Positions 59,576 through 64,000 of a stretch of DNA of 64,000 nucleotides are shown here, one piece after another. Each line of letters starts with the position of its first letter. Position 1 is the first letter of the stretch. The notes under the pieces were generated by a model. It saw only the letters and a list, made by a program, of their open reading frames with translations. It had not been told where the DNA came from and did no database searches. The translations under genes were made by a program, and so were the position numbers. Source of the stretch: Escherichia phage VB-EcoM-WM; the sequence record PQ014731.1; one strand, 5' to 3'.

Positions 59576-61132
59576 GTGTCCAAAAAGAACCGCAGGAAAC
59601 ACAACGCCACAGCCAAAACTGTGAATAAATCTGGGAACGCAGGCGCACCAACTCATAATGTTCGTATGAGTGAGATCGGTTCTGGCGCACTTTCCCAAAT
59701 TATGGCAGAATCACAATCTATGATGGTTGAGGAATTGCGTTGGCCTCAGCTGATTGCCACAGTGGAGACTATGAAATGTGATTCCACAGTTGCTACTGCC
59801 TTAGATACAAAATATGTTTTCATCACGAAAGCATTTAATGATTTTAAGATCCTTTATAATGTTAAAAGTGAAGACTCTAAGAAAGCTGCCGAGCTTATAG
59901 AGTATTCTTTGCGTAATTTGGCAAACCAGCAAACTCTTCGAGATATTGCACGAAGTGCAGCTACCTTTAATGAGTATGGTTTTTCACTGTTTGAGAAAGT
60001 ATACCGCAGAGAGAAAGAAGGTAAATATGCCGGGATGCTTCTTATTGATAAAATTGCATTCCGACCTCAGGCCAGTTTGTCCAGATCAGAGCCGTTTGTC
60101 TTTGACAAGAATAGTAGAACACTGACAGGTATTTATCAATCACCTAATGCATTTCTAAACACGCAGAATGCACGCTGGGCTGGCCCTCTTGCTGCAATGC
60201 CTTCAAAAGGCTTTAATGAGCCTGAAATTTTCATCCCTGTTAAAAAGCTTATGCTCATGACCCTGTCAGGAACAGAATCTAACCCTGCAGGTGTGTCACC
60301 GATGATAGGTTGCTACAGATCTTTCCGTGAGAAAGTTCTGATTGAAAACCTTGAGGTTGTTGGCTGTTCCAAAGACCTTGGTGGTGTGCTTGAGCTGAAA
60401 ATTCCTTCCAATATTCTGAACAAGGCCAGTATTGACCCGAATTCAATGGAAGGGAGAATGGTTGCAGATCTTATGCTTGACGCAGCAAATGCCCATAGCG
60501 GGGAGCAAAGTTTCTTTATACTCCCGTCTGATAGAGATAAGTCTGGTAAAGAGCTTTACTCCATGACCCTGAAGGGGGTTGACGGCATGGGTAAGCAGTA
60601 TTCCACTAAAGATTTGATTGATGCCCGTAAGAAGGCGATTCTTGACCGTTTCGGTGCTGGCTTTATTAACCTTGGTAACGATAACGTTGGGTCCTTCTCT
60701 CTGTCTGAGTCAAAACAATCTATCCATGGTCATTTTGTTCAGCGTGATATAGATATTATCACTGAGGCCTTCAATAAAGATCTTATTCCACAGCTTCTGG
60801 CATTGAATGGTATCATCCTTGAAGATGATGATATGCCTAAACTGAAACCTGGTCTGATTGAAGAAGTGGACATGGAGAGCTTCTCCAAGTTTGTCCAGAG
60901 GATCGGTGCTGTAGGTTACTTGCCAAAAACTCCTGCAGTAATTAATAAGATTCTTGAAGTAGGCGGGTTTGATGAAAGATTTGACGAGGACATGGATCAG
61001 GAAGAGCTGATGAAACTCTTGGGCCAGGACATCAGTAGAGCTGGTGATGGAATGGCTGCAGGATCCACTGGCAACGGCACTTCTAAGATGTCATCAACCA
61101 GAGATAACTCCATATCTAACATGGAAAATTAA
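59576..61132 (+). CDS. putative portal protein (518 aa)
   Basis: Size and position directly after terminase; GTG start after GAGGGG. Confidence 0.55.
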   Translation: MSKKNRRKHNATAKTVNKSGNAGAPTHNVRMSEIGSGALSQIMAESQSMMVEELRWPQLIATVETMKCDSTVATALDTKYVFITKAFNDFKILYNVKSEDSKKAAELIEYSLRNLANQQTLRDIARSAATFNEYGFSLFEKVYRREKEGKYAGMLLIDKIAFRPQASLSRSEPFVFDKNSRTLTGIYQSPNAFLNTQNARWAGPLAAMPSKGFNEPEIFIPVKKLMLMTLSGTESNPAGVSPMIGCYRSFREKVLIENLEVVGCSKDLGGVLELKIPSNILNKASIDPNSMEGRMVADLMLDAANAHSGEQSFFILPSDRDKSGKELYSMTLKGVDGMGKQYSTKDLIDARKKAILDRFGAGFINLGNDNVGSFSLSESKQSIHGHFVQRDIDIITEAFNKDLIPQLLALNGIILEDDDMPKLKPGLIEEVDMESFSKFVQRIGAVGYLPKTPAVINKILEVGGFDERFDEDMDQEELMKLLGQDISRAGDGMAAGSTGNGTSKMSSTRDNSISNMEN

Positions 61133-61199
61133 AAATTATCAACACAGGGGGTTGCAAAACCTCCTTTGGCGTGATAAAATAATCCACATGGGGAATAAG

Positions 61200-61619
61200 A
61201 TGCCACAGGAAGAAATGATTTCCTACGAAATCATCTACGAACCTGACACTAAAGATGCTCACGGTGAGTGGATGAGTAAAGACACCATCAAAAAGGCTAA
61301 AGATAACTGGGATGCAGCATACGCCGCAGGCCTAGTTTCTGAAAACCTTTTTCACTTGACCTCTACAGATGCTTTCACTATTGAAAAGACGTGGATTCAA
61401 GAAGAGTTTGATGTTGTAGTAATTGGCACTGAGCAGGTCATCAAGGCTGGCTCTTGGGTTGCTAAAGTTAAATACAATAATCCTGAATTATGGGAAGCTA
61501 AGAAGGCTGGCATTGTTGGTGGCCTAAGCATTCAGGCAACAGGCAATGTTGATGAAGAGACTGGTGAAATTACCAACGTAAACTTTGGGATCAGTGTTGT
61601 AGAAGAGGGCAATGAATAA
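61200..61619 (+). CDS. head morphogenesis protein, possible prohead protease
   Basis: Position between portal and scaffold; GGLSIQATG resembles GLSIG of HK97-type proteases; weak. Confidence 0.4.
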   Translation: MPQEEMISYEIIYEPDTKDAHGEWMSKDTIKKAKDNWDAAYAAGLVSENLFHLTSTDAFTIEKTWIQEEFDVVVIGTEQVIKAGSWVAKVKYNNPELWEAKKAGIVGGLSIQATGNVDEETGEITNVNFGISVVEEGNE

Positions 61620-62596
61620 TGTCTGAAAAAACGATTACTATTAAAGAGAAGGGGATTGCCCTGTGCCATAAGGCGCAAGGCTATAGCGCTAACAACAGAC
61701 CTGTATCTCTTTTGATGAAGAGTGATCTTCAGCCTGAGCAGTTAACAGACGATATTGTTAAGGCACTTCGCCAAGTTACTGTGGAGCTTAGTTTTGAAGA
61801 ATACCTGCGTCGTTTCTTCGATATGTGGTATGATGATGCCAAAGCACTTGCACACATGCTTGGTTTTGAGATTGAAGAGGAAGCTTGGGCTAAAGAACAT
61901 CCTGATTGGGAATGGGCACAAGCTGACGCAGAGTCTTGTATTGCATGGCTGGAAGAGCGTTGTGATAACGTGACCATTCATAAAGCTGCAAAAGAAGGCA
62001 AGCAGCTTAGTGTGGTAGATCAGTACAGCCTGTTAAAAACACAACAGATTTTTGAACAAGTAACCGCTGATCTCTTCGATAAAGAAGGGAACCTGATCAA
62101 GGCGGTACAGGAACCTACTGAGGTAGATAAAACTACCGAGGTGGATGATGTTGCAAAATCCGCAAATACCGAGGAGAATCCGGTGGACGTAACCAAAACT
62201 AAAGAGTATCTGGATCTGCTGAAGCAAGTAGAAGAGCTGAAAGCAACCCAGAGTAAAGCTGAAGAAATCATCAAGGCTCAGGTTGAAGTTGAAAAAGCTA
62301 AAATGCTTACTAAAGCTCAAGCTTTAAGCTTTGTTGGTGAAGAAGATCATGCAACCCTGGTTGACTTCATGCTGGAAAAAGCTAACGAACCTATTGTAGC
62401 TATGCTGGAGAAAGCTCAAGCCAAAATTGAAGAGCTGGAAGCAGAGGTGCATAAAACCAAAGAAGAGTTTGCCACCACTGAACATGGTAATGATGGCGAA
62501 CCTGTTGTGGATGATATTGCAAAATCCGCAGAAGAAATTCTTGCTGAAAACGTTGCAAAAGCACTTGCTCGTGCACGTGCAGAATCTACCAAATAA
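61619..62596 (+). CDS. putative scaffolding protein (acidic coiled-coil)
   Basis: E/K-rich helical sequence; position upstream of capsid gene. Confidence 0.4.
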   Translation: MSEKTITIKEKGIALCHKAQGYSANNRPVSLLMKSDLQPEQLTDDIVKALRQVTVELSFEEYLRRFFDMWYDDAKALAHMLGFEIEEEAWAKEHPDWEWAQADAESCIAWLEERCDNVTIHKAAKEGKQLSVVDQYSLLKTQQIFEQVTADLFDKEGNLIKAVQEPTEVDKTTEVDDVAKSANTEENPVDVTKTKEYLDLLKQVEELKATQSKAEEIIKAQVEVEKAKMLTKAQALSFVGEEDHATLVDFMLEKANEPIVAMLEKAQAKIEELEAEVHKTKEEFATTEHGNDGEPVVDDIAKSAEEILAENVAKALARARAESTK

Positions 62597-62616
62597 GACA
62601 TTAACGGGGGAAATAA

Positions 62617-63006
62617 ATGATTACCGCTCAATATTCTGATATCGTGCTCGGCAAAGTTGATTCTAGCGATGCTGGCTACAATTTTAAAGAGATGGAAATT
62701 ACACTGACAGAGCACCATCATGCTGGTACTGTTGTAACAAAAACTGGCACTATCGCTAACGATGATGGCTCAGACGTTTATGGCGTTCTCGTAGACCGAG
62801 CTCTGGTAAAAGATGCAGGAAAAGTTCATCTCGCTGAGCCTCTGCAAACAGGTCAGAAATATAAACTGGTTGTTGCAGTTCACGGTGTTACCTTTGCAAA
62901 AGATAAGCTGCTGGGGTCTAACGGTGAAGCAGCTAAGCAGGCTGTTCTTGAAAAGCTGGAAGCTCTGGGTAACAAAGTTCACGTCCAGACTCTTGGTGAA
63001 GAGTAA
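62617..63006 (+). CDS. head-associated protein (possible decoration protein)
   Basis: Position between scaffold and capsid genes; RBS GGGGGAAATAA. Confidence 0.4.
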   Translation: MITAQYSDIVLGKVDSSDAGYNFKEMEITLTEHHHAGTVVTKTGTIANDDGSDVYGVLVDRALVKDAGKVHLAEPLQTGQKYKLVVAVHGVTFAKDKLLGSNGEAAKQAVLEKLEALGNKVHVQTLGEE

Positions 63007-63054
63007 GCCCTAAATTGTTCGGGAAAATATTTAAGTTTTACTTTGGAGAAATAA

Positions 63055-64000
63055 ATGATTACTCGTAAAGATGAATTTGGCATTGTTGATTTAGGTGCTA
63101 CTCTGGACCTTGTTCCGCGCCAATTCCGACTGATCACCGGTATGGATCTGTTCGAAACCCGTCTCGGCACCTCAACAATTGCTCAGATCGAGCGTGTTGA
63201 TGAAGTTGTAACCGACATTCCGGCACGCCGTCGTGGTGGTGAGCGTAACTACGTTGGTAATGAACGTGCTCAGGTTAAAAACCTGAACATCCCGTTCTTC
63301 CCTCTGGATAAAGGTATCACTGCTGCAGATGTCCAGAACTTCCGTCGTTACTTCACTCCTGATGCTCCAAAAACTGTTCAGGACGTAGTAACCCGCGTTG
63401 TTCGCCGTATCCGTGTTTCCCATGAAGCACTGCGTGAGAAAGCGCTGTTCCAGGCTATTCTGGGTAAATCCTATGCACCTGGTGACACAACCTGTCAGTA
63501 TGACTACTACACTCTGTGGGGTGTGTCTCAGAAGTCTGTTGAGATCGACCCTGCAAAAGCAGATCAGGATCCTATGGAGGTTCTGGAAGAAGCTCGTCTG
63601 CACATCGCACTGCAAGCTGGTGATAACGCAGCTGGCTATCGCATTGTAGCTCTGTGCTCACCGGAGTTCTTCAGTGCTGTTACTCATCACCCGCTGGTAG
63701 AACTGGCATACACCTATTACGGCTCTGCTCAGGAACCTCTGCGTCGCCGTCTGGGTGCTGGCGGTCAAGACAGCGTATATCGTGTGTTTGAGCATAAAGG
63801 TATCACCTTTATCGAAGATATCTCTGGCAATATTCCTAAGAAAGAAGCTCGCATTCTGCCGATGGGTATTGATCAGATGTTCCAGCTGCACTTTGCTCCG
63901 GCAGACGATGTTAACGAAGCAAACACTCCAGCACAGGAACTGTACATGTGGTACAAACACTCTGCATACCTGCGTGAAGAGAAGATTGAATCTGAAACTT
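63055..64000 (+). CDS. major capsid protein (5' partial; ORF runs off window end)
   Basis: ATG after GGAGAAATAA; open frame of over 315 codons to window edge; antisense ORFs in the track rejected. Confidence 0.5.
   Translation, partial: MITRKDEFGIVDLGATLDLVPRQFRLITGMDLFETRLGTSTIAQIERVDEVVTDIPARRRGGERNYVGNERAQVKNLNIPFFPLDKGITAADVQNFRRYFTPDAPKTVQDVVTRVVRRIRVSHEALREKALFQAILGKSYAPGDTTCQYDYYTLWGVSQKSVEIDPAKADQDPMEVLEEARLHIALQAGDNAAGYRIVALCSPEFFSAVTHHPLVELAYTYYGSAQEPLRRRLGAGGQDSVYRVFEHKGITFIEDISGNIPKKEARILPMGIDQMFQLHFAPADDVNEANTPAQELYMWYKHSAYLREEKIESET

Follow-up and report, generated by a model that had tools for sequence, protein, structure and literature searches.

Are the genes at the downstream end of a 64,000-nucleotide (nt) stretch of Escherichia phage VB-EcoM-WM (sequence record PQ014731.1; the whole stretch is called the window here) a working head module, and to which known type do they belong? 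A reading made from the sequence alone had proposed a compact module in the order portal–protease–scaffold–decoration–capsid. All the pieces that it named, i.e., a portal of 518 amino acids (aa), a small protein with a GLSIQ motif, an acidic protein, a 129-aa protein and a long open reading frame (ORF) reaching the window end, were found on the + strand, and the proposed order is supported by profile, structure and literature evidence. The region is very probably the operon for head morphogenesis in a Vequintavirus, a virulent Escherichia coli myophage of the rV5 type. It comprises the following features:

57660-58402, + strand: large terminase subunit, exon 1, ATPase domain with Walker A motif GAAGSGKS (Pfam Terminase_6N, E=5e-17; collinear with the intronless TerL of phage SYGMH1)
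58403-58668, + strand: group I intron, 266 nt (Rfam RF00028; absent from SYGMH1)
58669-59473, + strand: large terminase subunit, exon 2, RNaseH-like nuclease domain (Pfam Terminase_6C, E=3.6e-7; frame continuity after intron removal)
59523-59544, + strand: terminator-like hairpin followed by a T-run, in the gap between terminase and portal (consensus scan)
59576-61132, + strand: portal protein, 518 aa, GTG start (phrog_113, Portal_Mu and phiTE/phi92 PDB matches)
61200-61619, + strand: prohead serine protease, XkdF type, 139 aa (Pfam Peptidase_S78_2, fold match)
61619-62596, + strand: putative scaffold, 325 aa, acidic (position, charge, helicity, trace virion abundance)
62617-63006, + strand: head decoration (cement) protein, 129 aa (phrog_2680, phiTE DEC, mass spectrometry of rV5 virions)
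63055-64000, + strand: major capsid protein (MCP), lambda gpE family, first 315 of 336 codons (Phage_cap_E, phrog_29 and phiTE/phi92 PDB matches)

Comparison of positions 57600-64000 of the window (6.4 kb) by megablast matched 137 phage records, of which 112 show 95-99% identity, and nearly all belong to Escherichia phages of the genus Vequintavirus. The best local match was YP-6 (98.1%); HdK5 reached 97.3% and rV5 (NC_011041) 97.1% DNA identity, the latter at 100% coverage, and the gene order of the window recurs in the annotated regions of rV5, RudolfGeigy and SYGMH1. The five head proteins are near-identical to rV5 gp64-gp60 (portal 99.8%, protease 98.4%, scaffold 99.1%, decoration protein 100%, and capsid protein 99.7% over the 315 aa present). 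Since four of the five match curated families or solved structures with E values from 7e-14 to 3e-182, the pattern is not due to chance, and the locus behaved as an rV5-type head module in every test applied. Four of the five genes now have strong family assignments, which the sequence-only reading had regarded as weak, based on Pfam, PHROGs and the cryo-electron microscopy (cryo-EM) structures of phiTE and phi92; mass spectrometry of rV5 virions supports them further. The profile searches that it had suggested for portal, protease and capsid returned Portal_Mu, Peptidase_S78_2 and Phage_cap_E, which like Terminase_6N and Terminase_6C all scored above their curated cut-offs; no protein was placed in a non-structural family, and the GenBank labels 'DNA methyltransferase', 'DNA-binding protein' and 'helicase' are contradicted by these tests.

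The portal matches phrog_113 (portal, E=8.4e-88) and Pfam Portal_Mu (43.9 bits, cut-off 23.9), and it is homologous over its full length to structurally defined dodecameric portals, with E=3e-182 for the phiTE portal structure 9cc7 (residues 3-518) and E=3e-111 for phi92 gp120 in the PDB. Its rV5 homologue gp64 was detected in virions with 36.3% mass-spectrometric coverage (PMC3606486). The SYGMH1 label 'ATP-dependent helicase' for the portal is contradicted by the Pfam and structure evidence. The capsid protein reaches 124.1 bits against Pfam Phage_cap_E (PF03864; cut-off 22.9, model positions 4-294 of 329), falls in phrog_29 (major head) and matches the phiTE MCP 9cul_G (E=4.6e-92) and phi92 gp124 (E=1.4e-61). 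By analogy with these relatives, it would adopt the HK97 fold and form a T=13 shell. In rV5 virions, gp60 accounted for 2030 spectra at 83.3% coverage, and peptides of gp60 and gp61 reach the N-terminus; as those of the MCP begin at residue 5, no delta domain appears to be removed from it (PMC3606486, including its supplementary table).

The capsid gene is cut by the window, as had been noticed from the sequence alone. Its frame is open from ATG 63055 through 315 codons to the window end, and the gene measures 1011 nt (336 aa) in rV5, RudolfGeigy and SYGMH1, so that the final 21 codons (SMLAVNTRPELVVKATLKGGE, taken from relatives) and the stop should lie beyond the window. The sequence-only reading had also stated that the program-made ORF list holds only antisense frames over 63055-64000. 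The true gene is indeed missing from that list, having no stop within the window, and antisense frames are listed at 63172-63615 and 63658-63960; two out-of-frame ORFs on the + strand (63398-63649 and 63654-63791) are, however, listed as well. For annotation it is useful to know that the capsid gene is intact and merely clipped at the window edge.

A second apparent defect lies in the terminase gene. The sequence-only reading had counted a terminase within 59576-64000; the gene is present, at 57660-59473, which is outside that span, and it is split. On the + strand its ORF appears in two pieces, 57660-58409 and 58736-59473. Rfam RF00028 (group I) matches 58393-58617 with 92.7 bits against a gathering score of 50 (E=2.6e-23), and alignment with SYGMH1 TerL, whose ORF is continuous, shows exactly 266 nt to be missing there. 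The alignment alone would place the intron at 58404-58669, ending in A, and these boundaries were set aside. Shifted by one base, to 58403-58668, the exon ends in U and the intron in G, as the group I rules require, and the protein is unchanged. Judged by its sequence, the interruption is a genuine group I intron, and the terminase needs to be annotated as a spliced gene. Among near-identical phages, SYGMH1, BP9 and Phage 203 carry no terminase intron, the window carries one, and RudolfGeigy and rV5 carry two; group I introns in rV5 TerL (ORF64ABC) have already been reported (PMC3606486).

A terminase frame broken by stop codons and a capsid ORF without a stop could also mark an inactive remnant or an assembly artefact, e.g., the relic of a prophage whose terminase is broken and whose capsid gene is truncated. 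We consider this extremely improbable, as removal of the group I intron restores the terminase frame, the capsid truncation reflects the window edge only, with the last bases exactly as in rV5 up to the cut, and all genes share 98-100% identity with their counterparts in plaque-forming phages.

The small protein with the GGLSIQ motif is a prohead protease of the XkdF type. It scores 65.6 bits against Pfam Peptidase_S78_2 (PF14550; cut-off 24) and covers model positions 8-123 of 126. Its structure model has the assemblin/gp21-like fold, with the T4 gp21 prohead protease as the best match and herpesvirus assemblins next; a sequence search of the PDB gave chance-level matches only (E of at least 0.1). 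His21, His52 and Ser110, the last being the serine of GGLSIQ, are invariant in 24 homologues; Ser110 together with His21 and/or His52 are the candidate catalytic residues. Neither of the two protease tryptic peptides searched for was present in the mass spectrometry table of rV5 virions.

Public annotations give this protein another function, DNA methyltransferase or DNA-binding protein, under the labels of RefSeq rV5 (gp063), JES2013 (gp061), SYGMH1 (SYGMH1_180) and PHROG 1530, and its top PHROG match is indeed phrog_1530 'DNA methyltransferase' (1.7e-51). That match, however, spans only positions 244-373 of 379, a C-terminal module of 130 positions that contains no methyltransferase core, so the label is best explained as a carried-over misannotation. 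Pfam returns Peptidase_S78_2 and no methyltransferase family, and the top structural matches, the invariant Ser and His residues and the position of the gene between portal and scaffold all argue for the protease; a role in DNA methylation or DNA binding is hardly credible. In the SYGMH1 record, a spanin carries the label 'capsid maturation protease', which the results from Pfam and from structure and fold comparison contradict.

The start of the protease gene also differs between records. The maximal ORF, 61044-61619, begins with GTG and encodes 191 aa, and RefSeq rV5 uses the long version (190 aa), whereas the 139-aa version is annotated in RudolfGeigy and SYGMH1. We place the start at ATG 61200 on the basis of three features: the sequence GGGGA lies 5 nt upstream of this codon; a hairpin, AGGGGGTT-GCAA-AACCTCCT at 61146-61165, sits between the portal stop (61130-61132) and the ATG, within the long version; and conservation among homologues begins at EEMISYE, right after the ATG. 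The long ORF was rejected, as it would overlap the portal gene by 89 nt, contain the hairpin and lack conservation before EEMISYE, and the GTG at 61044 is probably unused. In more distant relatives, the protease has an N-terminal extension of unrelated sequence. The practical points for annotation are that several public records mislabel the prohead protease and that its start codon is at 61200 and not that of the long ORF.

The 325-aa protein encoded next is a putative scaffold. It is acidic (pI 4.66; 69 D+E versus 40 K+R), is predicted to be elongated and helical, lies just upstream of the capsid genes and is nearly absent from virions: its rV5 homologue gp62 yielded 2 spectra versus 2030 for the capsid protein (rV5 supplementary table, PMC3606486). 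The homologue in RudolfGeigy is annotated as head scaffold. A single-sequence AlphaFold model, used for secondary-structure tendency only, consists mostly of long helices (132-164, 191-236, 241-287 and 294-324). The start codon overlaps the protease stop (TAATG), which suggests coupled translation of protease and scaffold.

Several results weigh against the scaffold assignment. The AlphaFold model is of low confidence (mean predicted local distance difference test score, pLDDT, 55.5), no Pfam or NCBIfam match was obtained, the PDB sequence search stayed at chance level (E of at least 0.1), and the only PHROG match, phrog_2970 (7e-108), is of 'unknown function'; across Pfam, NCBIfam, the PDB and PHROGs, no homology to a characterised scaffold was found. 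This lack of homology, together with the two peptides of the rV5 homologue present in purified virions, would suit a protein that is not removed as a scaffold is, be it a minor component of the head interior, an ejection protein or a chaperone that serves assembly in some other way. Such a role is unlikely, given that the spectra of the homologue are about 1000-fold below those of the capsid protein, that the gene sits at the canonical place for a scaffold gene, its start codon overlapping the stop of the protease gene, and that the product is acidic with mostly long predicted helices. It also counts against an ejection protein or chaperone that a capsid protein of the lambda E type, which is not known to carry a delta domain, requires a scaffold encoded apart from it. 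A scaffold stays the preferred function of the 325-aa protein, in view of its position, its composition, its predicted helices and the trace amounts present in rV5 virions.

The decoration protein matches phrog_2680 (head decoration, E=3.8e-40) and, over residues 4-127, the phiTE DEC chain 9cul_e (E=6.8e-14), i.e., a structurally defined cement protein that has been assigned to the beta-tulip family (PMC11972413). Its abundance in virions follows from rV5 gp61, to which it is identical, with 1077 spectra and 85.3% coverage (PMC3606486). The protein works like gpD, yet it is no sequence-level member of any Pfam decoration family.

The decoration gene is also a site of local divergence. Its 3' two-thirds (62726-63025) show 72-79% identity to relatives whose flanks are 96-99% identical, and a patch of the capsid gene (63476-63775) shows 89-91% identity to relatives that are otherwise 96-99% identical. 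Across the database, decoration genes fall into discrete classes of at least 95% (46 records), 80-90% (51; around 81%) and 60-80% (20) identity. The ratio of nonsynonymous to synonymous substitution rates (dN/dS) is 0.11-0.13, with a synonymous rate (dS) of about 0.8. Positive selection on the decoration protein was rejected on the basis of this ratio; a dN/dS of about 0.13 combined with a dS of about 0.8 points to recombinational allele exchange instead, and the divergence looks like the import of an old, purified allele. One could further speculate that the gene is a local recombination hotspot, at which exposed cement alleles are swapped among Vequintaviruses, with the capsid patch 63476-63775 as a matching change, in order to escape recognition of the capsid surface by a host defence sensor or antibody-like pressure. 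We hold this to be quite improbable, and the low dN/dS leans against adaptive change in the decoration gene.

Beyond the scaffold, a number of points do not favour the assignment of the region to a head module of this type. NCBIfam returned no match for any of the five head proteins. The Portal_Mu match is limited to the C-terminal third of the Pfam model (positions 223-326). At 139 aa, the protease is very short, and no scaffold-like tail that could take it into the procapsid is obvious. For the decoration protein, the match to phi92 gp123 is marginal (E=0.48), and no Pfam family was hit at E of 0.01 or below, that of lambda gpD included. The T=13 geometry is extrapolated from relatives outside the genus, phiTE being a Certrevirus.

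Taken together with published work on relatives, the gene set is consistent with the following, lambda-like course of head assembly. Twelve portal subunits would nucleate the procapsid, and the HK97-fold, lambda-E-type capsid protein would co-assemble around a core formed by the acidic helical scaffold and the small XkdF-type protease, which may be recruited into the procapsid and would then degrade the scaffold as its presumed substrate. The group I intron would be spliced out of the messenger RNA before the terminase is made. Once the scaffold has been removed, the terminase would package the genome of about 138 kb through the portal; expansion would follow packaging, and decoration trimers would cement the shell last. 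The T=13 geometry, the decoration trimers and the virion composition in this scheme are carried over from the published relatives and apply to the window by analogy.

Around the coding sequences, Shine-Dalgarno-like sequences precede the portal (GAGGGG, 8 nt upstream), decoration (GGGGGA) and capsid (GGAGA) genes. A rho-independent terminator is annotated in rV5 at the intergenic position corresponding to 59523-59544. Directly upstream of this post-terminase hairpin lies a sequence that agrees well with a sigma-70-like promoter, TTGCCA-17-TAGAAT plus an extended TG (59477-59544 including the hairpin); a promoter followed by a terminator just ahead of the portal gene is an odd layout.

Further upstream, only the first 25 nt of the rV5 tRNA-Pro gene (acceptor and D-arm, 56134-56158) are left in the window, and an HNH endonuclease ORF (56169-56510, 113 aa) lies within an insertion that replaces the rest. 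ARAGORN found no tRNA-Pro in the window, and the phage is without that tRNA because most of the gene has been replaced by the HNH-carrying insertion. A tRNA-like element of 99 nt at 55868-55966, with a 4-base anticodon (atcc) according to ARAGORN, an irregular anticodon loop and a long extra arm, scores 37.5 bits against the Rfam tRNA model, and the matching gap between tRNA-Ser and tRNA-Thr in rV5 is unannotated; the element could be a degenerate or unusual tRNA. The database comparison also returned about 18 UNVERIFIED, unannotated 'Campylobacter phage' records (MG065658.1 and other MG0656xx) that are about 96% identical to the head region, and the host attribution of these records is doubtful.

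The module itself is already known and nothing in it is new. Its significance beyond correct annotation is small, given that it has been sequenced in more than 100 phages, that mass spectrometry of rV5 has identified its virion proteins and that cryo-EM has solved its architecture in relatives. Among the closest known systems, rV5 (Vequintavirus V5) has its gp64-gp60 and TerL ORF64ABC in the same order, and its terminase likewise contains group I introns. The rV5 terminase has introns of 319 nt and 979 nt, the second with an HNH gene, whereas the window has a single intron of 266 nt that carries no HNH gene; the terminase of RudolfGeigy, too, has an extra 319-nt intron relative to the window. 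Upstream, rV5 retains the tRNA-Pro, most of which has given way to an HNH gene in the window, and the RefSeq record of rV5 calls the long protease ORF a DNA methyltransferase, which our tests contradict.

The capsid architecture is best compared with phiTE (Pectobacterium; Certrevirus, Vequintavirinae; PDB 9CUL/9MJN/9CC7), which has a homologous MCP, decoration protein and portal but belongs to another genus and infects another host. In its cryo-EM structure, an MCP with the HK97 fold builds a T=13 capsid, and the beta-tulip cement proteins are arranged as trimers (PMC11972413). The phiTE DEC measures 149 aa versus 129 aa here, and phiTE has a further protein, 'Pagoda', which is centred on the hexamers and whose gene lies elsewhere. 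Phage phi92 shares the phiTE architecture, with 775 MCP copies, 260 cement trimers and a dodecameric portal, and its beta-tulip cement trimer has been likened to the lambda cement protein (PMC13450770). The protease resembles T4 gp21 and the herpesvirus assemblins in fold, with a sequence identity of only 11%; at 139 aa it is far smaller, and outside Pfam S78_2 it has no recognisable sequence relationship to them.

The module works like the head gene set of phage lambda, with several differences. The protease of the window is of the XkdF/S78_2 family, its scaffold is a separate gene and its shell would be T=13 by homology, whereas the lambda protease is of the ClpP/S49 type, with Nu3 nested in frame within its gene, and the lambda capsid is T=7. 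Lambda is not known to have a terminase intron. The functional order of lambda, with B as portal, C as protease and Nu3 as scaffold, D as decoration and E as capsid protein, is nevertheless that of the window, and lambda gpE and the capsid protein described here belong to the common Pfam family PF03864.

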